NCBI GenBank assembly: GCA_036507655.1 | Contig: DATCIS010000019.1 | Location: 10,736 to 74,735, forward strand | Length of the DNA stretch: 64,000 nucleotides | Reading direction: 5' to 3' | Source of the DNA: Candidatus Saccharimonadales bacterium | Lineage (GTDB): Bacteria; Patescibacteriota; Saccharimonadia; Saccharimonadales; UBA10212 | In this document: piece by piece, positions 29,218-50,747 of the stretch | Layout: the number at the start of each line of letters is the position of its first letter | How positions within the stretch are numbered: position 1 is the first letter of the stretch | Notes under the pieces: generated by a model | Seen by the model: only the letters and a program-made list of their open reading frames with translations | The model's database searches: none | Told to the model about the DNA's origin: nothing | Position numbers and translations under genes: made by a program

Positions 29218-29280
29218 GCCCGAGCGGCGGATTCATTCCGCGCCCGGCGCGATGAGAAAAACGTAGTTTGTCTCATAAGC
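29218..29280 (+). repeat. double-hairpin intergenic repeat element, copy C
   Basis: gcccgagcggcggattcattccgcgcccggcgcgatgagaaaaacgtagtttgtctcataagc; 5' module shared with copy D, 3' gcgcgatgaga...tctcataag module shared with A, B and D. Confidence 0.6.
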
Positions 29281-29287
29281 GTCAGCG

Positions 29288-30661
29288 TCAAAACCTGTGG
29301 ACACCGTCGATATTGGTGGCGTCAGATGGCAAAGGGTGCTTTGGTTGCTCACCATCGATGATATATCCGGCCCCTTTGGTATCTTCACCGGCCGCCGATT
29401 TGTCGCCATCTTCGGCTGTAAGTGGTTCTTTGTCTTGTACTTCCAGACTTGGTACAGATTTTGCTAATAAATCAGGCTCTTTTTGAGTCGATTCAGGCGC
29501 TGGCAGTAGTGGCTCGTCCGGGGGTTCGGTGATATTTAGCTTTTTCTCTTTGGATTCAATATCTTTCTGGTCTTTGTGATGCCGATCGGCGTGTTTGGCT
29601 TCAACGTCTTTGAGATTGGCCTGATTATCTTCGTCTTCGGACTCAGAGCCACTGCTTAAGAGCCGCGCGACATCTGCCGTTAGTTCGACCAGGCGGTTAC
29701 TATAGCCCCATTCGTTGTCGTACCAAGCAACAACTTTAACTAAATTACCGTCAACAACCGCGGTTAGCGGCAAATCAACAATCGCTGAGTGGCTGTTACC
29801 GATAAAATCGCTGCTAACCAATTCCTCCTCAGTAACATCCAAAATGCCCTGGAAATATGGATCGGCTGAAGCTTTTTTAAGGACTTCGTTGACTTCTTCA
29901 ACCGTTGTGTTCTTTTTGGTAACTACAGCAAAATCGCTTAAAGACACGACCGGGGTTGGTACGCGCAGGCTCAGGCCGCCGAAAATTCCCTCCAGAGACG
30001 GCATGGCCTTAGCAGCCGCGATACTGGCGCCGGTCGTCGTCGGGACGATATTGGTGGCCGCGTTGCGAGCCTCACGAATGTCCTTGGCTGGGCCGTCCAA
30101 CAGAACCTGGCTGGCTGTATAACTGTGGATGGTTGTCATCATGGCTTTTTCGATACCGAAATTAGATTCGAGTATAGCCATAATCGGCGTTATAGAGTTG
30201 GTGGTACAGGAGGCATTACTAATTACTTCACTAGCTGAGTTTATTTTGTCCTCATTGACGCCGAGGACAATCGTCTCAGCACCATCGCCTTTGGCTGGTG
30301 CGCTGATTATGACTTTTTTAGCTCCGGCTTCAATATGGGCTTTGGCCTTGGCCGGGTCAGTGAAAAGTCCGGTAGACTCAATCACAACCTCAACACCTAA
30401 ATCCCTCCAGGGTAATTTGGCCGGGTCTTTCTCGGATAAAACTTTTATTTTCTGGTCTTTAACGATAATGTTCTGCTCATCGGACGCAACATCATATTGA
30501 TAAGCGCCGTAGTTACTGTCGTGCTTTAGTAGATGGGCCAAAGTCTTGGTATCGGTCAGGTCGTTAACGGCTACAATTTCCAAGTCAGGACGCTCAAAAG
30601 CAATCTTGAAGGTATTTCGGCCGATTCGACCGAAGCCGTTTATAGCGATTTTAGTTTTCAT
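29288..30661 (-). CDS. gap: glyceraldehyde-3-phosphate dehydrogenase with a ~125-aa acidic low-complexity C-terminal extension; start set at MKTKIAINGFGRIGR
   Basis: NAD-binding INGFGRIGR, catalytic ASCTTNS; GGGAG SD precedes the ATG at 30661; the ORF-track start at 30679 would lie inside the upstream hairpin. Confidence 0.9.
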   Translation of the reverse strand: MKTKIAINGFGRIGRNTFKIAFERPDLEIVAVNDLTDTKTLAHLLKHDSNYGAYQYDVASDEQNIIVKDQKIKVLSEKDPAKLPWRDLGVEVVIESTGLFTDPAKAKAHIEAGAKKVIISAPAKGDGAETIVLGVNEDKINSASEVISNASCTTNSITPIMAILESNFGIEKAMMTTIHSYTASQVLLDGPAKDIREARNAATNIVPTTTGASIAAAKAMPSLEGIFGGLSLRVPTPVVSLSDFAVVTKKNTTVEEVNEVLKKASADPYFQGILDVTEEELVSSDFIGNSHSAIVDLPLTAVVDGNLVKVVAWYDNEWGYSNRLVELTADVARLLSSGSESEDEDNQANLKDVEAKHADRHHKDQKDIESKEKKLNITEPPDEPLLPAPESTQKEPDLLAKSVPSLEVQDKEPLTAEDGDKSAAGEDTKGAGYIIDGEQPKHPLPSDATNIDGVHRF

Positions 30662-30671
30662 TAATCTCCCA

Positions 30672-30697
30672 CCATACAATTCATTTCAATTGTATGG
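30672..30697. promoter_or_regulatory. 10-bp perfect inverted repeat CCATACAATT-N6-AATTGTATGG just upstream of the gap SD
   Basis: ccatacaatt catttc aattgtatgg read directly; T-rich on the plus side. Confidence 0.4.
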
Positions 30698-30721
30698 TTT
30701 TATGCTAAAGCTTTCAACAGT

Positions 30722-31255
30722 TTATGAGGACTTCTGAGCCCGTTCGATCGACTCAGCAATGACTTTCTTGGCTTCTTCGGTATCACCCCAGCCTAAGACT
30801 TTGGTGCTGCCGGGTTTTTTTAGGTCTTTGTAGTGGGAGAAGTGGTGGTCAATTTTTTGCTTCCAGCGCTCCCCCAAATCGTCTAGAGATTTTATTGAAT
30901 CTCCGCTGTCACGGTCGTCAGCCGGAACAACGATGATTTTATGGTCCATCTCACCGTCATCCTCGAAATTCAGGATGCCGACTATTCTGCCTTTCAGCCA
31001 AACCCCAGTGCCAACCGGCTGGGAGGTAACTATCAATGTATCCAGTTCATCACCGTCTTCATCTAGGGTTTGCGGTATGAATCCGTAATTTACCGGCTTG
31101 GCAAAAATCTTCGGCTCAACTCTATCGAGCCTGAAAGCTGCTCGCTTACGATCCCATTCGATCTTCATGATAGAACCTTCCGGAATTTCAACGACGGTGT
31201 TGAGTTCGCCGTTGCGCCAATCACCCGGCTCTAAAACTTGATTGAAATCTGGCAT
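30722..31255 (-). CDS. ppa: inorganic pyrophosphatase (family I)
   Basis: 177 aa; EIPEGS, DEDGDELDTLIV, HYKDLK motifs. Confidence 0.9.
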   Translation of the reverse strand: MPDFNQVLEPGDWRNGELNTVVEIPEGSIMKIEWDRKRAAFRLDRVEPKIFAKPVNYGFIPQTLDEDGDELDTLIVTSQPVGTGVWLKGRIVGILNFEDDGEMDHKIIVVPADDRDSGDSIKSLDDLGERWKQKIDHHFSHYKDLKKPGSTKVLGWGDTEEAKKVIAESIERAQKSS

Positions 31256-31298
31256 CTTTAAGTTTCGGTTAACTGGCAGTATTGTACACTATTTTGAG

Positions 31299-31976
31299 AT
31301 GATTATTGTCGGTCACCGCGGTGCGTCGGGGTTAGCTCCGGAAAATACCATTAAGGCCTTAGAGCTCGGCCGGGATTTGGCCGACGGCGTGGAATTTGAC
31401 GTCAGAGTAACCAAGGATAAAGTTCCCATACTTAACCATGATGCCGGAATATTCGATAAAGATAGCAGACGGTGGTTGATAAAAGATTATAGCTATTCTC
31501 AGCTCAAAAAACTGAGACCGAGCCTGGCAACTCTGGAAGAAGCCCTGTCGCTCAAGTATGGTAAGACCCGTGTCTTCATTGAAATCAAAGCCCTAGAGCC
31601 AACCGAGCCGATAATTCAAGTTATTCGGCCATATTTTAAAAAAAGGCGGCTTCAAATCGCTATCGGGTCATTTGATTTTGAAGTTCTAAAAAAAGTTCGA
31701 ACTCAGCTCCCGGAAGTTCAGTTATTGATCAACGAAAGGTGGTCGAGCTTAAGGGCCAATTGGCGCGCCCGCCAACTTAATACCAATCAGATAAATATTG
31801 AGCACCGCTTCTTATGGTTTGGACTAGTAAGCATGCTGAGCAGGCGAGGGATTGTGCTCTATACTTACACTCTAAACGACCCCCGTAAAGCCCGCAATTG
31901 GCAAAAGCACGGCTTAGCCGGAGTATTTACAGATTTTCCTAACCTCTTTACAAGAAAAGTTAGTCGGTTACGCTAA
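31299..31976 (+). CDS. glycerophosphodiester phosphodiesterase (GDPD family); start set at MIIVGHRGASG
   Basis: HRGASGLAPENT and EFDVRVTKDKVPILNHD motifs; the ORF-track start at 31242 adds 19 unlikely residues. Confidence 0.75.
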   Translation: MIIVGHRGASGLAPENTIKALELGRDLADGVEFDVRVTKDKVPILNHDAGIFDKDSRRWLIKDYSYSQLKKLRPSLATLEEALSLKYGKTRVFIEIKALEPTEPIIQVIRPYFKKRRLQIAIGSFDFEVLKKVRTQLPEVQLLINERWSSLRANWRARQLNTNQINIEHRFLWFGLVSMLSRRGIVLYTYTLNDPRKARNWQKHGLAGVFTDFPNLFTRKVSRLR

Positions 31977-32391
31977 CCGTACCATGCATCGAGGGATGAA
32001 GACCGCAGATATAGTTAAAGCTGCCGACCTGGTTGAATGTAAAGCTAAAAGTATCATTATTGCCTAAGTTTTGGCTCTGAGGACCGCTGTCCGATTCGGC
32101 CTCAATAGTGTGAGCTACGCTGTCATTATTCGTCCAAGTTACCTTTGTTCCCTTCTTAACGGTTATATCAGTAGGTGAAAACGCGAAATTACTAATGCTG
32201 ACTTTATCAGTCGAAGCCGCTGATTGGTTATTCGAGGAAGTGTTTTGGCTATTTTGAGTAGTTGAGCTGCTCTGCTGGGTTGAGTTGTTATCAGTCTGAT
32301 TATTACCTCGACCGGCGACTATAAAAATAGCAGCCGCTATTAAGGCGATTACAATTAAACCCGCCAGATATTTCATTCTATAAACCTCCAT
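31960..32391 (-). CDS. cupredoxin (amicyanin/plastocyanin-like type-1 copper protein) with N-terminal membrane anchor and Ser/Thr/Asn/Gln-rich linker
   Basis: Ligand pattern H (SVAHTIE) ... YICGLHPSMHG (C-x2-H-x2-M as in amicyanin). Confidence 0.6.
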   Translation of the reverse strand: MEVYRMKYLAGLIVIALIAAAIFIVAGRGNNQTDNNSTQQSSSTTQNSQNTSSNNQSAASTDKVSISNFAFSPTDITVKKGTKVTWTNNDSVAHTIEAESDSGPQSQNLGNNDTFSFTFNQVGSFNYICGLHPSMHGTVSVTD

Positions 32392-32422
32392 TTATATGCC
32401 AAAAGATATAATATCACGCTGG

Positions 32423-33427
32423 CTACGCCGCTGAGTACGTCCGGCTGTCGGTTTGCATTGAGCGGTGAGGATGATCGCCGTGTTTACGGGCCGGTACTTG
32501 ATCCAGATATTCCCGGATGGTCAGGGCAGCAGTAGCGCCTTCGCCGACAGCGCTGGCAATCTGCTCTGTGGCACCGCTGCGCACATCACCAGCGCAAAAG
32601 ATTCCCAAAATATTCGTACCAAGATGCTCGTTGGTTTTTACAAAACCGCGTTCGTCAAGCTCGATGCCACTACCAGCTAGGAATTGGGTATTGGGAATCA
32701 GGCCGATGAATACAAAAACACCATCGGTTGCGAATTCGACATTTTGATTCGTCTGGTTGTTCTTGGCTACGACCCTTTTCACAAAGTTACCCTCTCCAAC
32801 AATCTGACTGATTTCGGTGTTGAAATGGACGGTTATATTGGGTGTCTTGGCAATCCGTTCAACCAATATGTCGCTAGCCCGCCACTGGTCTTTTCTAATC
32901 AAGATATCAATATGATCGACCAGCTTTGCCAAGAATAGGCTCTCTTGAGCCGCCGAATTACCACCGCCGACCGCAACTAGCCGTTTACCTTTATAAAGCG
33001 GTCCATCACAGGTCGCGCAGTAGTGTACGCCCTTACCGTAATACTCTTTTTCACCCTCTGCCTCTAAGCGTTTGTAGTTGTTGCCAGTAGCAATCAACAG
33101 TGTATGCGCTAGGTACTCCTTGTTATCGGCCGTATAAGCTTTCTTGACGTCTGATCCATTCTCAATCTTGGTTACGTCGCCATACTCGAGTTTGGTACCG
33201 AATCGTTCGGCTTGTGCTCGTAAGCGGTCGGCCAGCTCCAGGCCGCTGATGCCGTCAGGGAACCCTGGGTAATTTTCTACGCTGTCGGTGATTGCCGCCA
33301 GACCGCCTATCACGCCTTTTTCCAAAACCAATGTTTCTATATCTTCGCGGGTGGTATAAACCGCCGCACTGAGTGCTGCCGGTCCGGCCCCTATAACGAC
33401 TAGGTCGTGGACTGGATTATTTTCCAT
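32423..33427 (-). CDS. trxB: thioredoxin-disulfide reductase
   Basis: 334 aa; FAD GxGxxA (VVIGAGPAALSAA), redox-active CATCDG, NADPH site GGGNSAAQE. Confidence 0.9.
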   Translation of the reverse strand: MENNPVHDLVVIGAGPAALSAAVYTTREDIETLVLEKGVIGGLAAITDSVENYPGFPDGISGLELADRLRAQAERFGTKLEYGDVTKIENGSDVKKAYTADNKEYLAHTLLIATGNNYKRLEAEGEKEYYGKGVHYCATCDGPLYKGKRLVAVGGGNSAAQESLFLAKLVDHIDILIRKDQWRASDILVERIAKTPNITVHFNTEISQIVGEGNFVKRVVAKNNQTNQNVEFATDGVFVFIGLIPNTQFLAGSGIELDERGFVKTNEHLGTNILGIFCAGDVRSGATEQIASAVGEGATAALTIREYLDQVPARKHGDHPHRSMQTDSRTYSAA

Positions 33428-33676
33428 CTAAGCCACGGCGGGGGCGAGCCGCGGAATATTGTAGCCGATTACGACCTCTTTGGAATCGTCCTGCTTTGTC
33501 ACAACCGTTATCGGCACCGTTAAGGCACCACTCATTTCTAAGACTTCTTGTTGGAGTTCAGGTTGCTCGTCCAGATTGACTATCTCGTACTTGAGACCTT
33601 TCATATCCAAAAAACGCTCCACCATAACACAATAAGCGCAGGTGTTGGTAGTAAATATAGTAATACTTTTTGGCAC
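33428..33676 (-). CDS. nrdH: NrdH-like glutaredoxin (CxxC redoxin); start set at GTG preceded by GGAGGG
   Basis: ITIFTTNTCAYCVMVERFL thioredoxin-fold CxxC motif; the longer ORF-track version (to 33874) has an unlikely N-terminus and would overlap the FKBP gene. Confidence 0.65.
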   Translation of the reverse strand: MPKSITIFTTNTCAYCVMVERFLDMKGLKYEIVNLDEQPELQQEVLEMSGALTVPITVVTKQDDSKEVVIGYNIPRLAPAVA

Positions 33677-33727
33677 GTGACCCTCCTTTTTTTGGGGTTT
33701 TAGTTTTAAAAGCTGCTCTCGCTTAAT

Positions 33728-33756
33728 TAATATAGCTTGTGTAGCGTAGCGAGTCA
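33728..33756 (-). promoter_or_regulatory. candidate sigma70-type promoter for nrdH-trxB (TTGACT-17-TATATT on minus strand)
   Basis: Minus strand reads ttgact cgctacgctacacaagc tatatt about 50 nt upstream of the nrdH start. Confidence 0.4.
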
Positions 33757-33794
33757 ATAACGCTATATATTGTGTTTTTGTCAGCAAATATGCA

Positions 33795-34301
33795 TTACTG
33801 AACTGCCAGCAGTGTGATGTCAAAGACCAAATCGGCGTTTGGCGGTATGCCCGATGTGGGCGGCGGGTTAGCACCGTAAGCCAAGCTAGCCGGTATGAGT
33901 AGGCGCCTTTGCCCGCCGACTTTCATTCCTACCAGTCCTTCCTTCCAGCCTTCAATGACCTGATCGAGCTTAAAGCTTACGGGTTGCCCGCTGTCTTGAG
34001 AGCTTTCGAAAACAACCCCAGTCGATGCGATTGCGCCAGTGTAAATTACCGCGACGGTTGAGCTGGCTTTGGCCCCAGTACCGCTACCAACAGTTTTATC
34101 AATTTTTTGTAGTCCCTCGACCTTAGCCACGGGAACGAAGTCTGGCATTGGTTGGCCTTTAAGTTGGTTCTGGGGCTGGCTTTGGTTTTGATTACCGCCT
34201 CTTGTAGCTTGCCAGAAATAATAAATGCCCACGCCGACTCCGGTGAGGACGAATAAAATGGCCACAAACAGCCACATCGCCCGCCGCAAAAAATCTCTCA
34301 T
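33795..34301 (-). CDS. FKBP-type peptidyl-prolyl cis-trans isomerase, membrane-anchored
   Basis: 168 aa; N-terminal TM then FKBP core GVVFESSQDSGQPVSFKLDQVIEGWKEGLVGMKVGGQRRLLIPASLAYG. Confidence 0.85.
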   Translation of the reverse strand: MRDFLRRAMWLFVAILFVLTGVGVGIYYFWQATRGGNQNQSQPQNQLKGQPMPDFVPVAKVEGLQKIDKTVGSGTGAKASSTVAVIYTGAIASTGVVFESSQDSGQPVSFKLDQVIEGWKEGLVGMKVGGQRRLLIPASLAYGANPPPTSGIPPNADLVFDITLLAVQ

Positions 34302-34308
34302 ATACTTA

Positions 34309-37239: not shown

Positions 37240-39774
37240 CTAAACTCGTTCGGCGCCAAGTTCAGTTTCAGCCCTAGCGCTTATTTCATCAAGGATTTGA
37301 TTGACTTCGGGCGTGGTTAGAGTTCTCTGTGGATGCCAAAGTGTCAGCCGCCAAGTAGTCTGTTTAAGGCCTTTGCCCTTTGCTCGCTGGAAAATGTCGA
37401 GCGGCTCAATCGTAACACTGTAGCCGTGTTCTTTGGCGGCTTTATCTAGTTGCGTACCTAAAAAATCGGTCAATGCCGCATACGAAAACTGCGTTGATGA
37501 GCGTAAACACAGATCTTGATCAAGGCTAGGGAAGCGATTGAGCGGACGGTAATTGATCCGGGCGGCCGCTATGCTTTGTAGCAATGCAATATCGAGTTCG
37601 GCCATAGATGAGTCTGCCGAGAGCTTAAGAGCCAATTTCAGCTCGGCAGATGGTTCTCCGACAATCCCTAGAGCATTGCGACCGGCATATACCACGGCTG
37701 TACGTCGAGGTTCATAGGCCTCTGAGGCAACCTGCCATTCCTTGGTCAGTTTTTTAACTTCATCAAGCGGCTGATATTGGATATCGTCAATACTTAACTT
37801 GTTAAGTAAATTGTCTATATAATATTTAGCCCTATAGAATGGAGCGCCCAATTCTTTAGTCTTATCGACTGAGACCAGGACCAGGCCCAACCTCAGCAGT
37901 TCCGCCGGCAATTTTTCACTGTTATCTACTCCCCTGATGTGAGCCGCGCCAATTTCAAACAAGGCGAAACTGCTAAATCGGGCTTTGATATTTGGATGGA
38001 CTTTCTCAAGTAAGCTCGGCGTTAAACTCAATCGGTAATATTGTAAATCGGGGCTAGTTGCGTTGCGGATATGGTAGGCGTCTTTAGTAGCTTGGCCGGC
38101 ATTTTCAATCAGAGAACCGTGAACAAAACTATACGTCAAAACTTCATTAGCGCCAGCTGACGATAGAATGCCGCGCATGCGTGATTTGAAAGCCAGCACC
38201 GGATCAAGCTCAGCCGGGCTTAAATCGCGCGGCGGCAGCTGCTGTGGTAGATGCTCGTAACCATAGAGGCGCCCGATCTCTTCAACTATGTCTTCGGGGA
38301 TTTTTATGTCCTTCCGCCAGAACGGCACCTGGACCGCCAATGTTTTGCCACTCGTTTTAATCCTGAACTCAACATTTTCTAACAGCCGGCTCATTTCGCT
38401 AGCAGATAAGTTTATGCCTAAGCGTTCATTAACGAAAATAGTTGTGACTTTAACTGTCGGTGGCTTTACCAACTGACCTTTAAGGTCGTAAATACTGCGT
38501 GCTGGCAGCCCGCCCGACTCATGGATGACGGAGTCGACGGCGCGAGCCAGCACGCGGTCGGTCTGCCAGGGGGACTGATTTTTTGTGAAGCGGGCGGCAG
38601 CATCCGTAAATAGACCATAATCCATAGCGGTTCTGCGCGTGACGCGCATATCGAAATTACCGACTTCCAAAATGATACTTCTGGTTTTCTCATCAACTTC
38701 GGTTGCCGCCCCGCCCATTACCCCCGCCAAACCGATTGGCTGTTTATCTGTGGCAATCACCAGCTCGCCGCCTGACAGAGTAACTTCTTTACCGCCTAGC
38801 AACACCAGTTTTTCGCCCTTTTGGGCTTCACGGACTACAATTTTTGCTTGATTGTTGCCGCATAGACTTTTTAGCTTGTCGTAATCATAGGCGTGAATCG
38901 GCTGAGCCGTTTCAATCATTAGAAAGTTGGTAACATCGACGATGTTATTGATAGGCCGTACCCCAACGCGAGCCAAATAGCTTCGAATATCTAGTGAGGC
39001 ATCGTTGACTTTGACGTTTTTAACGACTTGCATCATAAACCGTGGGACCAAATTTGGTACCTGGTTTTTAACGCTTAGCAGCTTGTCGTCTGTCTTGTGG
39101 CGGCCGGTAGTCTTATCGCCCAAGTACCACTTGGGCGAGCGGAAAACCATGTGTTGAATGCCGGCCAGTTCGCGGGCTATGCCCAGCATGCCAAAACAGT
39201 CCGGCCGATGCGTGAACATCTTGTTTTCGATATCGATTATATAATCATCCAACTCATAAACTTTGGCAAAATTATCGCCTGGTTTGGCAGCTTTATCAAT
39301 TTCAATAATCCCGGTGTGGTCATCGCCCAGCTCCAGCTCTTTGGCGCTGGCCAACATGCCGTGGCTAACCACACCGCGGATCTCTCGAACTTCCAAGGTA
39401 AGCGGTTCTTTATCGATTGTGCTCGGAACAGCTACACCTGGCGGAATCCAGGCGGCTAACATACCGGTTTTGACGTTCGGCGCGCCGCAGACAATTTCAA
39501 TCAGCCCGTCTTTGTCACGTTTTACGCCCTTGATTTTGCCACCGTCGTCAGCCAAACAAACGCTTAGCTTATCGGCGTTTGGGTGCTTCTGGTTTGAAAC
39601 AACTTTAACGACAACAATCCCTTTGTATTTTTTTCCAACGTCAATAACTTCTTCTACGGCCCCGAGCTGGGCTCCTATTTTCTCAACTAAAGCATCAACA
39701 CCGTCAGGAACAAGATTGGCCGAGCACTGGTCGGCCTCGACAATCGACCTAATCCAGTTAAGGCTAACCTTCAT
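37240..39774 (-). CDS. pheT: phenylalanine--tRNA ligase beta subunit
   Basis: 844 aa; tRNA-binding, B3/B4, B5, catalytic-like and anticodon-binding domain order typical of PheT. Confidence 0.95.
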   Translation of the reverse strand: MKVSLNWIRSIVEADQCSANLVPDGVDALVEKIGAQLGAVEEVIDVGKKYKGIVVVKVVSNQKHPNADKLSVCLADDGGKIKGVKRDKDGLIEIVCGAPNVKTGMLAAWIPPGVAVPSTIDKEPLTLEVREIRGVVSHGMLASAKELELGDDHTGIIEIDKAAKPGDNFAKVYELDDYIIDIENKMFTHRPDCFGMLGIARELAGIQHMVFRSPKWYLGDKTTGRHKTDDKLLSVKNQVPNLVPRFMMQVVKNVKVNDASLDIRSYLARVGVRPINNIVDVTNFLMIETAQPIHAYDYDKLKSLCGNNQAKIVVREAQKGEKLVLLGGKEVTLSGGELVIATDKQPIGLAGVMGGAATEVDEKTRSIILEVGNFDMRVTRRTAMDYGLFTDAAARFTKNQSPWQTDRVLARAVDSVIHESGGLPARSIYDLKGQLVKPPTVKVTTIFVNERLGINLSASEMSRLLENVEFRIKTSGKTLAVQVPFWRKDIKIPEDIVEEIGRLYGYEHLPQQLPPRDLSPAELDPVLAFKSRMRGILSSAGANEVLTYSFVHGSLIENAGQATKDAYHIRNATSPDLQYYRLSLTPSLLEKVHPNIKARFSSFALFEIGAAHIRGVDNSEKLPAELLRLGLVLVSVDKTKELGAPFYRAKYYIDNLLNKLSIDDIQYQPLDEVKKLTKEWQVASEAYEPRRTAVVYAGRNALGIVGEPSAELKLALKLSADSSMAELDIALLQSIAAARINYRPLNRFPSLDQDLCLRSSTQFSYAALTDFLGTQLDKAAKEHGYSVTIEPLDIFQRAKGKGLKQTTWRLTLWHPQRTLTTPEVNQILDEISARAETELGAERV

Positions 39775-40980: not shown

Positions 40981-41037
40981 CTTGTTAAAAAGTATAACAA
41001 CTCTAACCCCTATACCCTAGCGCCTCCACCGCGGCTT

Positions 41038-41119
41038 TGCCGTATAAGACACCCCTTTGGGTTTCCTATCGCGCAGGGCGCGGAATGAATCCGCTACTCG
41101 GGATACCTTCCCGAGGAAT
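41038..41119 (-). repeat. double-hairpin intergenic repeat element, copy D (inverted orientation, in pheS 5' leader)
   Basis: Minus strand cctcgggaaggtatcccgagtagcggattcattccgcgccctgcgcgataggaaacccaaaggggtgtcttatacggc; matches copy C 5' module and copy B 3' module. Confidence 0.6.
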
Positions 41120-41157: not shown

Positions 41158-41160
41158 AGT

Positions 41161-44585: not shown

Positions 44586-44612
44586 GAGTTTATTCTATAT
44601 TCCGAACTCTAG

Positions 44613-44624: not shown

Positions 44625-44653
44625 TGTCGCAATTTTTTATAATTTTGCTATAG

Positions 44654-45076
44654 ATGCACTACAAAACGTTGCGGGCACTACTGAAGAAAAACGGTTCGAG
44701 CCTTACCAAGCCGCGTAAGGTTGTTTTTGATTTACTTTTCAACCAAAAACCACAGACTATGCAGGTCTTAATCGGTCGGGCTAAAGATAGGGTGGACCGA
44801 GCCAGCGTTTATAGAGCTATGGAGTTGTTTGAGAAGCTGGGAATTGTCAACCGCTTAAATATCGGCTGGAAATACAAGTTCGAGTTATCTGATGTCTTCC
44901 AAGAACACCACCATCATTTCCACTGTACCAACTGCGGTACAACGTTCAGTCTTGAGCCAAACTCGATGCTTGAGACAATGATAGATACAGTAGCTGCCAA
45001 ATCCGGTCACTCGCCACGAGGCCACCAGCTAGAGGTTTACGGATTATGCGCCGATTGCCAACGTCGGACCGCCTAA
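44654..45076 (+). CDS. zur: Fur-family transcriptional regulator (Zur-like, divergent from ZIP transporter)
   Basis: 140 aa; winged helix then HHHHFHCTNCG ... LCADCQ metal-binding motifs. Confidence 0.85.
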   Translation: MHYKTLRALLKKNGSSLTKPRKVVFDLLFNQKPQTMQVLIGRAKDRVDRASVYRAMELFEKLGIVNRLNIGWKYKFELSDVFQEHHHHFHCTNCGTTFSLEPNSMLETMIDTVAAKSGHSPRGHQLEVYGLCADCQRRTA

Positions 45077-45093
45077 CTTTTTGATCATTTTTT

Positions 45094-45174
45094 CCGGATG
45101 AGCAGCCCGACAAAATGTATTCCATTTTGCCGGTGCGATGAGAAACCGCGAAGGGGTTTCTCATAAGGCCGGAG
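45094..45174 (+). repeat. double-hairpin intergenic repeat element, copy A (between convergent zur and MFS genes)
   Basis: ccggatgagcagcccgaCAAAATGtattcCATTTTGccggtgcgATGAGAAACCgcgaaggGGTTTCTCATaaggccgg; two perfect hairpins (7-bp and 10-bp stems). Confidence 0.65.
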
Positions 45175-45178
45175 GCCG

Positions 45179-46624
45179 TTAACCCATTGACATGGCTTCT
45201 TTGGCGTCAACTTTTCTGTTTTTGACTACCAAGAACACAACAACCGCGGCCGCCAAAGCCAGCCCAATACCTACTTGAAGTCCTGCTATATAACCATGTA
45301 CTTGAGCCCCCGCCCTAGGCCCACCAGCGGCAACTTCGGCAGTAATCGTCGAGAAGGCCACGGCTGATAGGATCGCCAGCCCGATTGCCCCACCGACCTG
45401 CTGCGAAGTGTTAAGGATACCCGACGCTAAGCCGGAGAAGTGTTTAGGCACTCCGGAAGTAGCCGCCAGTGTTCCTGATACGAACGTCAGGCCCATGCCG
45501 ACTGCCGCTGTAGCAAGTCCCGGGAAGACATTATGCCAATAGTCTCCATCGATTTTCATTGTCCGGCTGATAACAAATAGGCCGACTGCCAGTACCACTG
45601 GCCCTAGATTCATCGGCGGTTTGTAGCCGATTTTGGCAACCAGATTAGCAACTATTCCTGACACAACCGCGATTATGAACGTTACGGGCAAGAAACTAAC
45701 GCCGGTTTTTACCGGCGAATAGCCAAGGACGGTCTGGATGTAGAGTGTCAGGAAAAAAAACATCGAAAACATCGTGCAGGAAATTACTAAAAATGCCGAA
45801 TTGGCCCCAGACAAGTTACGTATTTTAAAAATCCTCAACGGCATCAAGGGCTGCTTAGCACGTTGTTCATTGAATACGAATAGTGTCAGTAGCGCCAAGC
45901 CAGCCACGATGAAGGCCCAAACAGTTACTGAATCCCAGCCATTACTTGGTGCTTTAGAAAGTCCGTAAACCAACGACATCAGACCGCCGGTAGCCAGAGT
46001 AGCACCGGGCAAATCCAGTTTGAGTTTCTTATGCTCTTCGCCGATATGCTTCGGCAGCAAATAGAAAGCCGTAAAGACTACCGCAATTCCAACCGGCACA
46101 TTGACGAAGAAGTTCCAGCGCCAATCCAGGTATTGTGTCAGTACACCGCCTAATAGCACCCCAGCGGCCGCCCCACCGGATGCCACTGCTGCCCAAACGC
46201 CCATGGCGGTATTACGCTCCTTCCCCTCTTTGAACTCAGCTAAGACGATAGAAAGGGCTGCCGGTGACATGATGGCACCACCCAGACCCTGAGCCGCTCG
46301 GGCTATGATGAGCTGAGTATCAGTCTGAGCCAACCCAGCGAGAAGAGACATGAGGGTAAAAAAGACCACGCCGGACATAAAGATCAAACGGCGGCCGTAA
46401 AGGTCGGCCGCCCGGCCGCCCAAAAGAAGGAAGCCGCCGAAAGTTAAGGTATAAGCTGTTATTACCCACTGCAGGTTATTGCCAGCAAAGTGTAAGTCTC
46501 GAGCTATAGAAGGTAGCGCTACGTTGACTATGGCAATGTCCAACACCACCATGAACTGTGCTACCGCAAGTAAAGCCAGGATGGCCCATTTATTTTCTGA
46601 ATGCTTAGTAATAGCTTTAACCAA
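45179..46624 (-). CDS. MFS transporter (14-TM DHA2/EmrB-like)
   Basis: 481 aa; GGRAADLYGRR MFS motif A-like loop, 14 hydrophobic segments. Confidence 0.85.
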   Translation of the reverse strand: MVKAITKHSENKWAILALLAVAQFMVVLDIAIVNVALPSIARDLHFAGNNLQWVITAYTLTFGGFLLLGGRAADLYGRRLIFMSGVVFFTLMSLLAGLAQTDTQLIIARAAQGLGGAIMSPAALSIVLAEFKEGKERNTAMGVWAAVASGGAAAGVLLGGVLTQYLDWRWNFFVNVPVGIAVVFTAFYLLPKHIGEEHKKLKLDLPGATLATGGLMSLVYGLSKAPSNGWDSVTVWAFIVAGLALLTLFVFNEQRAKQPLMPLRIFKIRNLSGANSAFLVISCTMFSMFFFLTLYIQTVLGYSPVKTGVSFLPVTFIIAVVSGIVANLVAKIGYKPPMNLGPVVLAVGLFVISRTMKIDGDYWHNVFPGLATAAVGMGLTFVSGTLAATSGVPKHFSGLASGILNTSQQVGGAIGLAILSAVAFSTITAEVAAGGPRAGAQVHGYIAGLQVGIGLALAAAVVVFLVVKNRKVDAKEAMSMG

Positions 46625-46751
46625 AACAGCACCTCCCTCTTTTATTGGCTTATTGGAGTTTATTATAAAGCAAAGCCAATCAATGCTTGTAAAACATATT
46701 GTAAGCGGCTGTGGATGACAAGCTTACGCCCCTCAGTTACACTTATACTAA

Positions 46752-47936
46752 ATGGCATCCGAGAAGCAGAAAGTCCTTATTTTAGGCGGCGGGTTCGGCG
46801 GAGTTAAGACCGCGCTGGAGCTGGCTAACCATCCTCATTTTGCGGTGACCCTGATGTCAGACCAGCTGAATTTCCGTTACTATCCCGCGCTATACCAGGC
46901 TGCCACCGGCGGTAGCCCGGTAGCGTCATCAATACCCCTTTCAGAGATTTTTGCCGGCAAAAACGTCCGGATAGTCCAAGACAGCGCTAAAAAGCTTGAT
47001 AGGCATAGCAAACAAATCCACTGCAAATCCGGCAAAATCTACGGCTATGATGTTCTTGTGGTAGCCCTGGGGGTAATTACCAACTATTTTGGGATTAAGG
47101 GATTAAAGGAGTATTCCTTCGGCATTAAAACCCTGGAAGATGCCCAAGAATTGCGCGACCACCTGCATAAACTCTTGATGGCTGAAGGCCAGCCGGACCT
47201 CAACTATGTAATCATCGGCGGCGGCCCGACCGGCGTCGAGTTGGCGGGCGTTCTGCCGGCCTATATCAAACACATTATGCAGAGGCATAAATTTCCCGCC
47301 AAAGCTATTCATGTTGAGCTAGTGGAGGCCGAACCGTATCTGGTACCGAGGATGCCGCGGCCTTATTCCATCGCTATCCAAAAACGGTTGCACCGCCTTG
47401 GCGTAAAGCTTCATTTGCACCAAAAAGTCGAGGCTGAAACCGCTGACAGACTGACGGTTAGCGGCCGCAGCATTGTTAGCCATACGGTCGTTTGGACGGC
47501 CGGTGTCACCAACCATCCCTTCCTAGCGGCTAATAAATTCAGCTTCAGTGAACAAGCCAAAGTTTTAGTTAACGAGTTGCTGCAGGCGGAAGAAGACATT
47601 TACGTTATCGGCGACAATGCCGACACCATATATTCGGGCATGGCGCAGACGGCTCTTTACGACGGTAAGTTCGTGGCTGAAAATTTTAAACGCCTGGCGA
47701 GGGGTAAACACCCTTGGCCGTATAAGCCCCGCAAACCGGTTTACGTCACTCCCGTCGGCCAACATTGGGCAGCGGTGCAATGGGGTAATCTGCAGATTTA
47801 CGGCTGGTTGGGGTGGGTGCTGCGGCGGGTAGCCGATTTTGTCGGCTATCACGACCTGCAGCCATGGTGGTCGGCTTACAAGCACTGGGAAGCCGAAAAT
47901 CAGAGCGGCGAAACCTGCAAAACATGTAGAGGTTAA
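46752..47936 (+). CDS. ndh: type II NADH dehydrogenase (NDH-2) / FAD-dependent pyridine nucleotide-disulfide oxidoreductase
   Basis: 394 aa; two Rossmann GxGxxG motifs (ILGGGFGG, IIGGGPTGVELAG). Confidence 0.75.
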   Translation: MASEKQKVLILGGGFGGVKTALELANHPHFAVTLMSDQLNFRYYPALYQAATGGSPVASSIPLSEIFAGKNVRIVQDSAKKLDRHSKQIHCKSGKIYGYDVLVVALGVITNYFGIKGLKEYSFGIKTLEDAQELRDHLHKLLMAEGQPDLNYVIIGGGPTGVELAGVLPAYIKHIMQRHKFPAKAIHVELVEAEPYLVPRMPRPYSIAIQKRLHRLGVKLHLHQKVEAETADRLTVSGRSIVSHTVVWTAGVTNHPFLAANKFSFSEQAKVLVNELLQAEEDIYVIGDNADTIYSGMAQTALYDGKFVAENFKRLARGKHPWPYKPRKPVYVTPVGQHWAAVQWGNLQIYGWLGWVLRRVADFVGYHDLQPWWSAYKHWEAENQSGETCKTCRG

Positions 47937-47941
47937 AGCCT

Positions 47942-49483
47942 ATGGACGCCAAAAAACTGATTTTTAAAGGACAACGGGCACTCGATTTAGTTGATGGACG
48001 GCTGGATCGACTAACGTCATATCGGCTGGTGCTGTACTCGCTGCTGGCTTTTGTGGCCTGGGGAATACTGGGTGGTTTGATGGGCGAGATCGCCTTTGAA
48101 TGGCACCAGGTTTTAGCTTCAACCGCCTTTTTGGCGGTCGTTTGCGTCACCGTCAACTACATAGCTTCTGAGCTACTCAATATCCCGCGCAACAAAGAAT
48201 CCGACTATATAACCGCTTTGATACTGGCTCTGATTTTAATGCCAGCCCAAGAACCTAATGATTACCTGATTTTGGCTGCAGCCGGTTCAGCCGCGATGCT
48301 GTCAAAGTACGTTCTGGTTTACGGCCAGCGGCATATTTTTAACCCGGCGGCAGCCGGCGCGTTCACGGTAGCTCTGCTATTTGATTATTTCCCGGCCTGG
48401 TGGATTGGGACGGCTTTTCTGGTACCGCTGGTCTTTATTGCCGGACAGCTGATTTTGCGCAAGATGAAGCGTTATTTAATGGTCAGCGTTTTTATGAGCA
48501 TCTATTTAGGTTACCTGGTTATTAATTTCTTTCTTAAAGACCAGGCCGGCGATCTGCTAAATATTGTCTGGGTCGGGCTGACTGCTACGCCAGTACTCTT
48601 CTTTGCCTACATTATGCTGACCGAGCCATCTTCTTCTCCGCATAAGCCGAAGCAAATGCTGGCCTACGCCACTCTCGTGGGAGTACTTTACTCGGTCAGC
48701 GATTGGCACTTCGCACCCGAAGAAGCCCTGCTTCTTGGCAATCTGTTCGCTTTTATCATGGCGCCCAATCGCCGTTTTGAGCTAGCGCTCAAACAAAAGA
48801 AAAAAGAGGCTAAAGATATCTACAGCTACATATTTAGTGGTAAAAAGAATTTACGGTTTGCTGCCGGCCAATATATGGAGTGGACACTACCGATGGTTAA
48901 GGCCGATACCCGCGGCAACCGGCGTTATTTTACTGTTTCTTCAGCGCCAACCGAAGATTATCTGATGTTTACCACCAAAGAACCAGAGAAGCGCAGCAGT
49001 TTTAAAGCCGGGCTGGAGAAACTGCAAGAGGGCGATAAGATGCTGGCCTACCAGCTCGAAGGCTCGTTTGTATTACCAAAGCACACTAGCCAAAAGTTGG
49101 CTTTTTTGGCCGGCGGCATCGGTGTTACGCCATTTCGCAGTATCATTAAATACCTCCTCGACAGCCGGCAAAAGCGCGACATCACACTGCTATATTCAGC
49201 CAACAGCGCCGATGAGTTCGCTTTTACCGACTTATTTCAACAATCACTACAAGCTGGCATCACAACGCATTACGCGCTCAGCGGTGAGGCACCCGATAAT
49301 TGGCTTGGTTTCAAAGGCCCGGTAGATGCCGCAATGATAAAGACCGCAGTTCCCGATTACAAAGAGCGTGTTTTCTACATATCCGGACCGTACGGTTTCG
49401 TTACCGGGTTACGGCAAACCCTGCTTAAAATGGGTTTGCCTCGCCAAAAAATCATTTCTGACTACTTCCCGGGTTACGGCTAG
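47942..49483 (+). CDS. fusion protein: N-terminal RnfD/NqrB-like membrane domain (with TATP flavinylation-type motif) + C-terminal FNR-like FAD/NAD(P)H-binding reductase domain
   Basis: [28 protein letters not shown] aligns with RnfD [33 protein letters not shown] matches the RnfD/NqrB S-x-A-T-P-L FMN-attachment motif. C-terminal RYFTVSS (RxYS), [20 protein letters not shown] are FNR-family motifs. Confidence 0.6.
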   Translation: [513 protein letters not shown]

Positions 49484-50149
49484 AGCTTCGTAGTCTTTTT
49501 GTTTTTTGACAAAATCGATGCCTTTTTTGCCCATGGCGAAGGCGGCCGTGGCTAGAACATCGGCTGAGATGATATCCGGACCGACCACAGTAATGCTTAG
49601 TATTTCGTCGGCCGGTTTTTTAGTTTTGGGGTTGATGATGTGCCCTCCGCGCTCGTAATTCCCCGATGTAGCCACCGCTCCGTTAGAAATACTTAACTTG
49701 TTAAGTATTCTCTGCTTATCAGTTGGATCTTGGATACCGATTTTCCAAATTTTATCGCTGCTCGAACGGCATAAAATATCACCACCAGCATAGATGGAGT
49801 AGGTTTTTTGGCCTTTGGATTCTAAAACCCTTCCAGCCTCGGCTATCGCCCAGCCTTTTACATACCCACTCGGGTCACAACTATCGCCGTACCATGCCGA
49901 GAAATAGCCATCTGTTTTTTCTTCAGCCCTTCGGCAGGCATGAAGTATGAATTTCATCTCGGGGCTCAAAGTCAGCTCATTTAGCTCACCGCGGTTATAT
50001 TTGGAAAGCTCGCTGTTCTTCTTATAGGGGCTGAACTGCCTATCAATCGCCCGCAATCTGTCAAAAGCGGCTTTTACAACAGACTCATTTTTAAGCTGTG
50101 GGACCTCGATAGTCACGGCCATGCCCATAACTCGGGCGGTTTTTCTCAT
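49409..50149 (-). CDS. apbE: ApbE-family FAD:protein FMN transferase (short form)
   Basis: 246 aa; N-terminal VMGMAVTIEV (MGT-type start), GGD, SISNGAVATSG, ADVLATAAFAMG motifs; 3' end overlaps the convergent fusion gene by 75 bp. Confidence 0.75.
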   Translation of the reverse strand: MRKTARVMGMAVTIEVPQLKNESVVKAAFDRLRAIDRQFSPYKKNSELSKYNRGELNELTLSPEMKFILHACRRAEEKTDGYFSAWYGDSCDPSGYVKGWAIAEAGRVLESKGQKTYSIYAGGDILCRSSSDKIWKIGIQDPTDKQRILNKLSISNGAVATSGNYERGGHIINPKTKKPADEILSITVVGPDIISADVLATAAFAMGKKGIDFVKKQKDYEALAVTREVVRNDFLARQTHFKQGLP

Positions 50150-50152
50150 GAC

Positions 50153-50593
50153 CTATGATTTAGAAGCATCGTATGCTTTATCAAGCGCCGACTGCAGCGA
50201 TTCCTGATAGCCGTAACTGGTACTGGTGGCCCCTGTTACAAAATCGATTTGATCACTTTGCTTTTCGAGGGTAGTGGCTTTAAGTAGGGGCTTGGACATT
50301 TCGGTTAGTTGTTGAGTACGACCGTCGTCTTTATCAGGCATCTGCCTAAACTGCACATCGCTAATTTTGCCGCTGGTTATTACAATTGTAATCTGAACAT
50401 TGCCATACAGCGTCTCAGCCACATCACTAGTGTACGTACCGTTCGGGTAATTATTCGCCTGAGTAGACCTATCCCCAATCCGGTTCTGGCTGGCCTGGAC
50501 GGCCGGTTCGTTAGATTCATTCTGTATCAACATATAACCACCCAGCCCACCTAAAATCGCCACCACCAAAACAATAACTAAACCTTTTTTCAC
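50153..50593 (-). CDS. FMN_bind-domain protein (NqrC/RnfG-like), membrane-anchored, with flavinylation motif
   Basis: 146 aa; N-terminal TM LVIVLVVAILGGLGGYML; C-terminal DFVTGATSTS (S/T-G-A-T-S/T flavin-attachment consensus); 3-bp gap to apbE. Confidence 0.75.
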   Translation of the reverse strand: MKKGLVIVLVVAILGGLGGYMLIQNESNEPAVQASQNRIGDRSTQANNYPNGTYTSDVAETLYGNVQITIVITSGKISDVQFRQMPDKDDGRTQQLTEMSKPLLKATTLEKQSDQIDFVTGATSTSYGYQESLQSALDKAYDASKS

Positions 50594-50667
50594 TACATTC
50601 AGTTTACCAGCAGACTTTAATTTAAGCTGAAGTCTAAGTTTTCACTTTGAGTTGACCGCCCTTTTTC

Positions 50668-50747
50668 TCCGGAAGAGCAGCCAGACAAAATGTATTCCAT
50701 TTTGCCTGCGCGATGAGAAACCACGAAGGGGTGTCTCATAAGGCCGT
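50668..50747 (+). repeat. double-hairpin intergenic repeat element, copy B (about 90% identical to copy A)
   Basis: tccggaagagcagccagacaaaatgtattccattttgcctgcgcgatgagaaaccacgaaggggtgtctcataaggccg; ends 8 nt before the ABC permease stop codon. Confidence 0.65.

Follow-up and report, generated by a model that had tools for sequence, protein, structure and literature searches.

Several kinds of small structured repeats are known from bacterial genomes. REPs are single palindromes of 20-40 nt with a GTAG head, present in hundreds of copies per genome and conserved in sequence within a genus; in RNA they act as barriers to 3' exonucleases. Rickettsia palindromic elements (RPEs) are self-folding units of ~100 nt in the very small genomes of host-dependent bacteria, and are known for in-frame insertion in protein-coding genes. 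MITEs, such as the Neisseria Correia elements, ERIC and pneumococcal BOX, are small intergenic units that are non-autonomous and affect or supply the expression signals of their neighbors. Here we compare with these systems four repeats in a 64,000-nucleotide stretch of DNA from a Candidatus Saccharimonadales bacterium (hereafter the window). They are copies of one conserved self-folding DNA/RNA element common to many Saccharibacteria genomes. A preliminary description, made from the sequence of the window, had proposed a REP/MITE-like role among others, and this is indeed the closest known kind. A full-text search of the literature returned no report of such an element, which appears not to have been described earlier.

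Results

Four copies of one element in the window

The preliminary description had placed four double-hairpin repeats in the window, here called A to D. Scanned with a covariance model of the family (filters off), the window yields exactly these four, with E-values of 1e-16 to 1e-24, and nothing else above 10 bits except the palindromic hairpin 2 on the other strand. Copies A and B share 92% identity across 84 nt, in line with the earlier estimate of about 90% over some 80 nt, and the hairpins quoted at the time are present in the copies. Copy D lies on the minus strand and is 88% complementary to copy C over 41 nt, as expected from the opposite orientation assigned to it. All copies are intergenic beside the genes that had been named, as borne out by the Pfam families of their neighbors: FUR/MFS_1 (A), ABC2_membrane/FMN_bind (B), Gp_dh/LacAB_rpiB (C) and tRNA-synt_2d, that is pheS (D).

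The extent of 65-80 bp first given to the repeats has to be revised, as a purine segment moves their start ~10 nt upstream and at the 3' end they close with a short hairpin adjoining a stop codon. Across the family, the element forms a sharply bounded, discrete unit of about 85-95 nt. From 5' to 3' it consists of the purine segment, a stem P1 carrying a variable hairpin 1, GCG, a conserved hairpin 2 (AUGAGA..UCUCAU), AAG and a mini-hairpin. Hairpin 1 is free in sequence and constant in shape, whereas hairpin 2 is constant in sequence, with a length range of 8 nt. The preliminary description mentions neither the purine segment nor its mirroring of hairpin 2. The copies and their parts are as follows.

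29207..29287, plus strand: copy C, whole element, GGAAAAGAG subtype (covariance model 92.5 bits), between the gap stop codon (29288-29290, minus) and the rpiB start (29187, minus)
29207..29215, plus strand: copy C, 5' purine segment GGAAAAGAG, mirroring hairpin 2 strand GAGAAAAAC
29219..29248, plus strand: copy C, stem P1 and hairpin 1, CCCGAG-CGGCGGA-TTCAT-TCCGCG-CCCGGC
29252..29276, plus strand: copy C, hairpin 2, ATGAGAAAAAC-GTA-GTTTGTCTCAT, with the conserved A.G mismatch
29280..29287, plus strand: copy C, 3' mini-hairpin CGTCAGCG, directly adjoining the gap stop codon
41032..41116, minus strand: copy D, whole element, the most diverged copy (covariance model 65.8 bits), with pheS (start 40980, minus) on one side and a divergent trehalase-like gene (start 41161, plus) on the other
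41106..41115, minus strand: copy D, 5' segment CTCGGGAAGG
41073..41102, minus strand: copy D, stem P1 and hairpin 1 (CCCGAGTAGCGGATTCATTCCGCGCCCTGC)
41044..41069, minus strand: copy D, hairpin 2, ATAGGAAACC-CAAA-GGGGTGTCTTAT, with one compensated pair (G-C to A-U) and one G.U wobble
41032..41042, minus strand: copy D, 3' mini-hairpin, CGGC-AAA-GCCG
45094..45178, plus strand: copy A, whole element, CCGGATGAG subtype (covariance model 78.9 bits), occupying the space from the zur stop codon (45074-45076) to the convergent MFS stop codon (45179-45181), with a T-run (45088-45093) just ahead of it
45094..45102, plus strand: copy A, 5' segment CCGGATGAG
45106..45134, plus strand: copy A, stem P1 and hairpin 1, CCCGA-CAAAATG-TATTC-CATTTTG-CCGGT
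45138..45164, plus strand: copy A, hairpin 2, ATGAGAAACC-GCGAAGG-GGTTTCTCAT, all paired
45168..45178, plus strand: copy A, 3' mini-hairpin, GCC-GGA-GGC(CG), adjoining the MFS stop codon
50669..50754, plus strand: copy B, whole element, CCGGAAGAG subtype (covariance model 79.1 bits), between the FMN_bind gene start (50593, minus) and the ABC2_membrane stop (50755-50757, minus)
50669..50677, plus strand: copy B, 5' segment CCGGAAGAG
50681..50709, plus strand: copy B, stem P1 and hairpin 1
50713..50739, plus strand: copy B, hairpin 2, ATGAGAAACC-ACGAAGG-GGTGTCTCAT, with the family-typical A.G mismatch
50743..50754, plus strand: copy B, 3' tail hairpin GCCGTTAGGCGC, adjoining the ABC2 stop codon

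One public assembly contig breaks off within copy B.

C(GNA)G-closed loops are common among the copies, and the tail frequently has GCGAAGC. Outward-facing ribosome-binding (Shine-Dalgarno-like) purine motifs are visible at both ends: GGAG or GAAG in the 3' mini-hairpin and, in A/B-like subtypes, a CCTCC 5' flank that reads GGAGG on the opposite strand.

A family spread across Saccharibacteria

We searched for the family with an exact 20-nt core pattern and examined the resulting loci with the covariance model. The further copies sought since the preliminary description exist: the core pattern occurs at more than 116 loci, nearly all in metagenome-assembled genomes of Candidatus Saccharibacteria/Saccharimonadales, and family matches score 50-106 bits. 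This is not a four-member family at strain level but an element shared by more than 100 Saccharibacteria species genomes. In the loci read, only about one more element per 100 kb was found beyond the seeded copies. A metagenome scan for relatives around the window gave two loci, one of them useful. The sole match in viral contigs was due to chance, and we rejected a phage origin.

As had been proposed, this is a dispersed, orientation-independent intergenic repeat, found in both orientations and in all gene configurations (42 copies co-directional forward, 22 co-directional reverse, 15 divergent and 14 convergent). Some 37% of copies run antisense to the genes beside them, with stems paired equally well, and none of the loci classified by gene context has a copy within coding sequence. 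Forward orientation prevails beside rRNA, tRNA, ribosomal-protein and chaperone genes. Intra-operon sites include L23/L2, L5/S14, L13/S9, S6/SSB and atpH/atpA, while RNA-gene sites include the 23S-5S spacer, the position just ahead of 16S and the gaps between tRNAs; in four genomes the P3 loop of a SAM-I riboswitch carries the element. A conserved RNA downstream of the element that was considered as SRP RNA is 5S rRNA. Downstream of the element's end, mature 5' ends (5S, 16S, tRNAs) follow at 5-16 nt, and the start codons of rpsJ, rplK, rplL, rpsI, rpsN, rplB and rpsR, as well as of ssb, groEL, dnaK, clpB, hrcA, secY and thrS, at 11-25 nt.

Orientation is maintained at orthologous sites (lepA, reversed in 5/5 loci; 5S, forward in 7/7; SAM riboswitch, forward in 4/4), with hairpin 1 compensated there. 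Such persistence, together with class-wide conservation of the core, is more than one would expect if the element were nothing but selfish DNA in a streamlined genome, and it speaks for a function at the level of the host. Relative to local GC skew, orientation splits 63:37, no more strongly than relative to the direction of flanking genes; we therefore rejected a constant polarity with respect to replication. Of the four window copies, three are on the strand with negative GC skew.

Gain, loss and orientation at orthologous junctions

The atpH-atpA junction is empty in the window, filled with a forward copy in locus L058 and filled with a reversed one in locus L057.

59440..59465, plus strand: empty site in the window, the atpH stop (TAG) followed directly by the atpA ATG

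In relative L123, sites A and B are both empty, the zur and MFS stops overlap (CTAG), and no element occurs anywhere in 13 kb. Site A reads GCC-TAA-[102 nt]-TTA-ACC in its filled form (window) and GCC-TAG-CCC in its empty form (L123); a duplication of TA(A) is possible, but ~10 extra bases that do not belong to the element are also present. No clear target-site duplication is visible at the two filled atpH-atpA sites. One locus (L114) carries a tandem duplicate of the element and another (L095) two copies. The element has thus been gained or lost at particular intergenic junctions, and either orientation is possible at one and the same junction. Tight linkage of cistrons does not prevent insertions between them, and the gaps between tRNAs, rRNA spacers and a riboswitch loop tolerate them as well.

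Terminal inverted repeats are absent: the two ends (GGGAAAAGAG... and ...CATAAG plus the mini-hairpin) are not inverted copies of each other, and a repeat search found no such pair. Neither the called genes of the window nor those of the 66.7 kb of contig read include a transposase, a Y1_Tnp or a HUH-type gene.

A fold kept by compensatory change

Across the family alignment, 97.7% of stem cells are paired. The structure-preserving covariation anticipated in the preliminary description is strong: 334 stem cells are doubly changed, against 92.5 +/- 6.6 in shuffles, and the stem covariation score is 0.446, against at most 0.115 for slid partners. The fold is preserved through compensatory change, and unpaired nucleotides are conserved as well. 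These data modify two earlier readings. The two different 5' modules from which a modular family had been deduced are one homologous stem-loop, hairpin 1, which covaries such that its sequence change is fully compensated. Copy B does have the mismatch noted in its hairpin 2, but this is no defect: A.G stands at this position in about 85% of family members and is ancestral, copy A being the exception.

The 5' segment is a mirror of the 5' strand of hairpin 2, following a simple rule in which A stands over A-T and G over G-C, with T tolerated over A-T. The lengths of the A-runs obey n = p-1 in 102 of 110 copies, through four length states. Mutual information between the segment and hairpin 2 equals that of the Watson-Crick stems, and the observed score was reached in 0 of 20000 trials when unique haplotypes were shuffled. 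The relation is retained in divergent copies: in copy D, the change of GAG to GG(T) in the 5' segment matches that of GAG to AGG in its hairpin 2. Base-for-base covariation of a third strand with the pairs of a helix is the sequence signature expected of a triplex, and the mirror relation fits a three-stranded contact with hairpin 2. The triplex code predicted from it would be of purine or A-minor type on the sense strand, and U.A-U and C+.G-C on the antisense strand.

The P1/hairpin 1 fold is ~3.3 kcal/mol more stable on the reverse strand than on the forward strand, mainly owing to one conserved position that is A.C (forward) or G.U (reverse) and is also seen as A.A and C.C. The remaining wobble pairs (99 G.U vs 71 A.C) are independent of gene context and pick no strand.

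Searches for promoters, terminators, known RNAs and peptides

Upstream of the 5' segment no sequence is conserved (information at most 0.14 bit per position), and no promoter-like site was found at copies A or B. We rejected a sigma-70 promoter on these grounds and because internal spacing is variable: with a hairpin 2 that varies by 8 nt in length, a fixed promoter spacing across it is impossible. An intrinsic (Rho-independent) terminator was likewise rejected, as neither strand has a terminator-like site at A or B and copies occupy intra-operon positions. Rfam 15 gave no match in the window, just noise at E<=10 around copy A; in other loci it matched neighbors (5S, LSU, SSU, tRNA, SAM) and never the element. 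A boxA (UGCUCUUUAACAA) was dismissed, UGCUCUUUU being confined to the reverse strand of the C-like subtype while rRNA-operon copies are forward. Open reading frames for a small peptide ('MSHK...' or from the invariant ATG of GCGATGAG) are artefacts, since the hairpin 2 loop varies in length by steps other than multiples of three, and in some copies a stop codon interrupts the frame.

Discussion

We give about an even chance to the explanation that these repeats are an old, Saccharibacteria-specific family of non-autonomous insertion elements of the REP/MITE/RPE kind, without a gene of their own. In this scenario, a single strand would fold into two coaxially arranged hairpins (P1 with hairpin 1, and hairpin 2) followed by the short 3' hairpin, with the 5' purine segment probably lying along hairpin 2 as a third strand. 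The conserved core would be the structure recognized, on single-stranded nucleic acid, by a putative factor acting in trans that copies, inserts or homogenizes the elements. Insertions would be harmless because the element folds on itself and carries outward Shine-Dalgarno-like motifs at both ends. RNA-level roles are likely, though unproven: when transcribed, the compact fold may serve as punctuation, either an exonuclease barrier or a processing landmark beside the adjacent RNA, and this would account for the persistence of copies in very streamlined genomes.

A somewhat doubtful alternative makes the element primarily an RNA, a sense transcript with two hairpins and a third strand. Immediately upstream of highly expressed RNAs it would be a processing landmark or a 5' stabilizer (such as a block to 5'-to-3' exonucleases or a protein-binding platform), reversed copies acting as 3'-end caps for the gene on that side. 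The short distances to mature 5' ends and start codons speak for it, as do the strong covariation, the conserved unpaired nucleotides and the intact copies within a riboswitch that is certainly transcribed; the 5' segment would moreover enter P1 at its junction with hairpin 2, the topology of an A-rich pseudoknot loop in a groove. However, the antisense copies pair equally well, the atpH-atpA junction accommodates both orientations, wobble-pair counts favor no strand whatever the direction of transcription, and relatives dispense with the element at the same sites without visible replacement. Independence from gene orientation would instead suit a fixed, non-mobile DNA element, in which a strand exposed during transcription or replication folds with GNA loops and a purine-type intramolecular triplex to form a host-protein site or topological signal. 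The mirror rule matches the antiparallel purine triplex code, which is established for DNA, and C(GNA)G loops are frequent, as is GCGAAGC, an unusually stable DNA mini-hairpin, in the tail. We nonetheless consider such an element unlikely: it has no known partner protein, polarity to GC skew is weak, GNA loops and base triples are frequent in RNA too, and the empty, forward and reversed states of the atpH-atpA junction are left unexplained.

Two further roles had been suggested for the window copies. As a bidirectional or factor-dependent transcription terminator or attenuator, the element would be well placed directly after stop codons at one or both ends (A, B and C), and the reverse strand of the C-like subtype has a GC-rich hairpin followed by UGCUCUUUUCC. 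It is not a canonical terminator, the A/B-like subtypes having a poor U-tract and copies A and B no terminator-like site, and relatives have copies in a riboswitch aptamer loop and within operons for ribosomal proteins, ATP synthase, tRNA and rRNA, all places at which ending transcription would do harm; we regard this role as quite improbable. Even less credence, very little in fact, goes to an independent multi-copy small RNA gene: the element is a discrete unit of conserved structure oriented independently of its neighbors, but it has no conserved upstream promoter, no terminator was found at A or B, and its ends adjoin coding sequences and mature RNA ends.

We tentatively suggest, from the mirror covariation, that the fold could hold a genuine intramolecular triple helix. 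In transcripts, the outer segment would be tucked onto hairpin 2 and cap the RNA end facing the element, the 5' or the 3' end depending on orientation, providing general transcript punctuation in rRNA, tRNA and mRNA operons. If so, this cap would be a bacterial counterpart, in Saccharibacteria, of exonuclease-resistant and ENE-type structures.

Few known genomes are more streamlined than those of ultra-small bacteria including Saccharibacteria, and yet these bacteria retain an elaborately folded non-coding element of roughly 90 nt, copies of which persist even in rRNA and ribosomal-protein operons and in a riboswitch aptamer. If selfish, it is an unusually long-lived and well-camouflaged element, and its mover would be a new mobilization system; if the host has adopted it, it may act as a general RNA processing or stability signal in a phylum with a barely known RNA metabolism. 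Base-for-base mirror covariation makes it a concrete candidate for a natural triple helix. In practical terms, the element breaks assemblies, and it may serve as a portable self-folding spacer in genetic tools for these bacteria.

Among triple-helix RNAs (A-rich pseudoknot loops, SAM-II and preQ1-II riboswitches, the ENE/MALAT1 3'-end triplex), the likeness lies in a strand at a coaxial helix junction that covaries with the helix, and in a reverse-strand code that would be theirs. The triplex proposed here is inferred from sequence, its sense-strand code is of a purine type not established in natural RNAs, and ligand, poly(A) tail and frameshift context are lacking.

With REPs and BIMEs the element shares its extragenic position, structure, occurrence in both orientations and presence within operons and at their ends; compensatory change preserves the hairpin, copies are homogenized within genomes, and recognition as a single-stranded hairpin is plausible for both. 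It differs from the REP palindrome in its size and composition (85-95 nt, with two unlike hairpins, a putative third-strand segment and a mini-hairpin), and GTAG occurs in it only in the hairpin 2 loop of one subtype. Copies probably number few to tens per genome, the sequence is conserved class-wide, REPIN-style inverted pairs are missing, and no RAYT gene was seen in the window or the 66.7 kb of contig read. MITEs resemble it in being small, non-autonomous and intergenic with effects on neighboring expression signals, in their subfamilies and modular look, and in presence/absence polymorphism at orthologous sites, and copies A and B show the matching within-genome identity. Unlike them, it has neither terminal inverted repeats nor a clear target-site duplication, and consists of two separate hairpins rather than one long end-to-end hairpin. 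RPEs have no sequence relationship to the element, which is not seen inside coding sequence; the two are nevertheless alike in length, self-folding and the reduced genomes of their host-dependent carriers, in persisting at orthologous sites across species with no known transposase, and in inserting into functional RNAs, here the SAM riboswitch P3 loop and the rRNA and tRNA spacers.

One family of structured repeats in the window

The four repeats of the window belong to a single family of self-folding intergenic elements of about 85-95 nt. With filters off, a covariance model derived from the wider family matches exactly four copies in the whole 64-kb window, a piece of a 103-kb metagenome contig, with bit scores of 92.5 (C), 79.1 (B), 78.9 (A) and 65.8 (D):

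Copy A, 45094-45178, plus strand, covariance-model match, neighbours zur and an MFS gene
Copy B, 50669-50754, plus strand, covariance-model match, neighbours ABC2 permease and FMN_bind genes
Copy C, 29207-29287, plus strand, covariance-model match, neighbours gap and rpiB
Copy D, 41032-41116, minus strand, covariance-model match, neighbours a trehalase-like gene and pheS

The sequences are found where the preliminary description had located them, and the neighbouring genes it named agree with a gene check of the window; its extents had the right places but were too short, each copy being slightly longer. Copies A and B lie 5.6 kb from each other and share 92% identity across 84 nt, copies C and D match at 88% across 41 nt in inverted orientation, and all four can be aligned over their full length.

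The window carries other repeats as well. The near-perfect palindrome (GT)AATACTTAAC-TT-GTTAAGTATT(AC) occurs at 7966-7991, 37789-37810 and 49688-49709 (two exact copies and one with two mismatches, against a chance expectation of none). Every copy falls within coding sequence (RNase HII, pheT and ApbE), and among the fetched loci the palindrome is found only in those of the window's own genome. Repeat family D2 (3937-3974, 10886-10923 and 19415-19452) consists of 7-nt units resembling AGCCGAT, AGCCGTT or AGCTGAC, 66-79% alike, and at least two of its three stretches lie just upstream of minus-strand genes (ClpB-like and PilB/T2SSE-like).

Architecture and selection on the fold

Comparison of the copies shows that each is built alike. 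Read 5' to 3' on its own strand, the element comprises:

Purine segment, G(2-3) A(2-5) GAG
CAG
Outer stem P1 around hairpin 1, P1 being interrupted by a conserved bulge and by an internal loop of 1x1
GCG
Hairpin 2, AU-GAGA-A-A(n)C(n) ... G(n)U(n)-G-UCUC-AU
AAG
Mini-hairpin, for example GGC-GAA-GCC, C-GAAG-CG or GCC-GGA-GGC

In subtypes like A, B and D the purine segment includes a short pyrimidine flank able to pair with it, and hairpin 2 usually has an A.G mismatch and a GNA-type loop. The separate 5' module that had been attributed to copies C and D turns out to be hairpin 1 after compensated change at each of its pairs. Among the loci fetched from other genomes and contigs (L-numbers), five carry an additional hairpin within P1 that makes a three-way junction (L014, L017, L028, L046, L059), those of L014 and L028 sitting in 23S-5S spacers, and in several (L041, L058, L074, L080, L092) the motif GCG(N)AGC of the 3' mini-hairpin occurs as a tandem duplicate, e.g. 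GCGGAGCGTGAGCGGAGCC.

The structure is under selection. Across 109 model-aligned copies, standard pairs fill 97.7% of stem cells (78.6% after shuffling), both sides have changed in 334 cells (92.5 ± 6.6 shuffled), and the covariation score of 0.446 compares with 0.113 after shuffling and no more than 0.115 when partners are slid; the RNAalifold result agrees. Doubly compensated pairs are numerous in P1, hairpin 1 and the apical half of hairpin 2, while no variation was possible in its basal half because the search pattern fixed those bases.

For P1 and hairpin 1 the reverse strand has the better folding energy in 105 of 117 copies, by a mean of 3.3 kcal/mol, mostly because one conserved position is A.C on the forward and G.U on the reverse strand. 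Variants at that position (AC 59, AU 11, AA 11, CA 9, CC 7) fit neither strand reading cleanly, and once it is excluded the forward reading gives 99 G.U versus 71 A.C. The ratio of G.U to A.C is independent of the strand that the flanking genes would transcribe.

The 5' segment mirrors hairpin 2

Backwards, the 5' segment reads the same as the 5' strand of hairpin 2 does forwards. In succession, G faces G-C, A faces A-U, G faces G-C, A faces A-U and A faces the A.G mismatch; A then faces A-U along the whole A-run, and G comes last. The A-run lengths satisfy n = p-1 for 102 of 110 copies, distributed over four states, (2,3) in 40 copies, (3,4) in 3, (4,5) in 50 and (5,6) in 9; the apical sequences of the three (3,4) copies are unrelated. 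The 5' segment and hairpin 2 share 0.8-0.9 bit of mutual information, as much as the strands of hairpin 2 share with each other, and no other long-range signal was seen. Divergent copies keep the rule:

L043:3619, 5' segment GGGGUGAG, hairpin 2 5' strand GAGAGGGG
L105:1317, 5' segment GGAGAGAG, hairpin 2 5' strand GAGAGAACC
L116, extra G at position 7 of the 5' segment and extra G at position 7 of the hairpin 2 5' strand
Window copy D, GAG to GG(U) in the 5' segment, GAG to AGG in the hairpin 2 5' strand

With each unique haplotype counted once (n = 41), the true partners agree at 242 positions, against 224 ± 3.8 after shuffling of partners, and 0 of 20,000 shuffles reached 242. Gene conversion of the whole element could move both parts jointly, without explaining why one rule holds across every state. 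As judged from sequence, the mirror relation is the pattern that a third strand lying along the helix would give. P1 and hairpin 2 probably stack on each other, because a single nucleotide separates them, and the 5' segment, entering P1 at the junction, would by analogy run along a groove as an A-rich pseudoknot loop does. The reverse strand, in such a geometry, would have a pyrimidine tail in the major groove, forming U.A-U and C+.G-C triples.

Distribution across Saccharimonadia

An exact scan for the core pattern GCGATGAGAAA-N8-16-TCTCATAAG, with one genome per species, matches at least 116 loci. Three of the listed matches (L005, L007, L045) are chance matches without the rest of the element; all the others are complete. 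The 80 titled records among the matches listed are nearly all metagenome-assembled Candidatus Saccharibacteria, Saccharimonadia or Saccharimonadales, with record names pointing to groundwater, a peat site and a termite-associated isolate among other sources. One complete element, with the hairpin 1 variant of window copies A and B, lies on a contig binned as Candidatus Binatia (L074), probably a binning error. In about 0.8 Mb of fetched flanks nhmmer added no more than seven copies and the covariance model three weak ones, so that the density elsewhere is below the window's four per 64 kb.

Elements reside between genes and inside operons

Elements are co-directional with both neighbours in 42 cases and reversed between co-directional genes in 22; 15 lie between divergent and 14 between convergent genes. 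As a rule the element takes up the entire spacer, and at either end only a few bases separate it from a stop or start codon. Forward copies precede ssb, rpsR, rpsJ, rplK, rplL, rpsI, rpsN, rplB and rpmG, as well as groEL, dnaK, clpB, hrcA, ftsA, secY, thrS, metK and atpA, and are demonstrably intra-operon at L23/L2, L5/S14, L13/S9, S6/SSB and the ATP synthase delta/alpha subunits. Reversed copies, whose neighbours were mostly named from N-terminal sequences, precede lepA (5 genomes), msrA (4), dinB (4) and rpiB (2, including window copy C), and also dnaX, gltX, rpsP, fpg and atpA. At orthologous loci orientation is constant, while the hairpin 1 sequence varies with compensated changes.

Stable RNA genes and a riboswitch also host the element. 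A forward copy ends 5-13 nt (mostly about 10 nt) before 5S in the 23S-5S spacers of seven genomes, two elements stand in tandem in a single such spacer of L095 (540-612 and 769-849), and one forward copy, in L037 only, lies 9 nt before 16S. Forward copies stand before or between tRNAs in the clusters of L046, L052, L077 and L108. In the SAM-I riboswitch upstream of metK a forward element sits within the P3 loop (L033, L009, L089, L067); at L033 1136-1335 the Rfam SAM model aligns end to end (50.3 bits) around an insertion of about 99 nt that is the whole element. At L013, around 5197-5290, a tRNA-like start (GCCCCGGTAGCTCAGTGGA) directly follows an element, and Rfam finds a tRNA only at 5297-5369; the sequence after the element may represent an unusual tRNA gene or one with an intron.

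Empty, forward and reversed sites

The atpH-atpA junction occurs in three states: empty in the window (about 59440-59465), where the atpH stop TAG is directly followed by the atpA ATG, forward in L058 and reversed in L057. In L123, a relative's locus with 70% protein identity, the zur and MFS reading frames reach the same last residues as their window counterparts. There they converge on a shared CTAG (1037-1040) that holds both stops inside 4 nt, with no spacer, against 45074-45181 in the window, and with no element within 13 kb; this overlap illustrates how little room such genes leave between them when the element is missing. In L114 a local tandem duplication of about 143 bp takes in the lepA start region, with elements at 1983-2060 and 2126-2200. 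Taken together, the three states, L123, the likeness of copies A and B and the L114 duplication show that the element has been gained by insertion, or lost precisely, at junctions between genes, in either orientation. A Logan contig terminates within copy B, as expected of a repeat.

Discussion

The element is most likely an old, Saccharimonadia-specific, non-autonomous insertion element of the REP/MITE/RPE kind. Other identities failed: a search of the upstream flanks and promoter/terminator-site searches at copies A and B speak against a sigma-70 promoter or canonical terminator, loop lengths break every reading frame and so exclude a coding sequence, the sequence matching boxA is on the wrong strand, and viral contigs gave one chance match and nothing else, against a phage-borne origin. 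No transposase was found near the element among the genes read in the window and contig parts, and neither a repeat search nor the comparison of filled and empty site A revealed terminal inverted repeats or a clear target duplication. Mobilisation would fall to a factor in trans, recognising the conserved core as a single strand. Insertions would be made harmless by the self-contained fold and by ribosome-binding motifs facing outward, GGAG/GAAG in the 3' mini-hairpin and GGAGG opposite the CCTCC flank; in L057 the opposite strand of that flank reads as the atpA ribosome-binding site.

The chief alternative, an RNA element dedicated to processing or stability, is compatible with an insertion element. 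That copies have long been kept at orthologous sites of streamlined genomes argues for a benefit to the host from at least some of them, and at the RNA level they may act as barriers or processing landmarks.

Rfam 15 has no family matching the element, and full-text searches of the literature gave no description of such an element. REP elements are insertion elements and RNA processing or stability elements alike, and the element described here is a new family within this known general kind. It is unusual in being conserved throughout one whole class, in residing inside rRNA, tRNA and ribosomal-protein operons and a riboswitch aptamer, and in bearing what appears to be the signature of a three-stranded contact.
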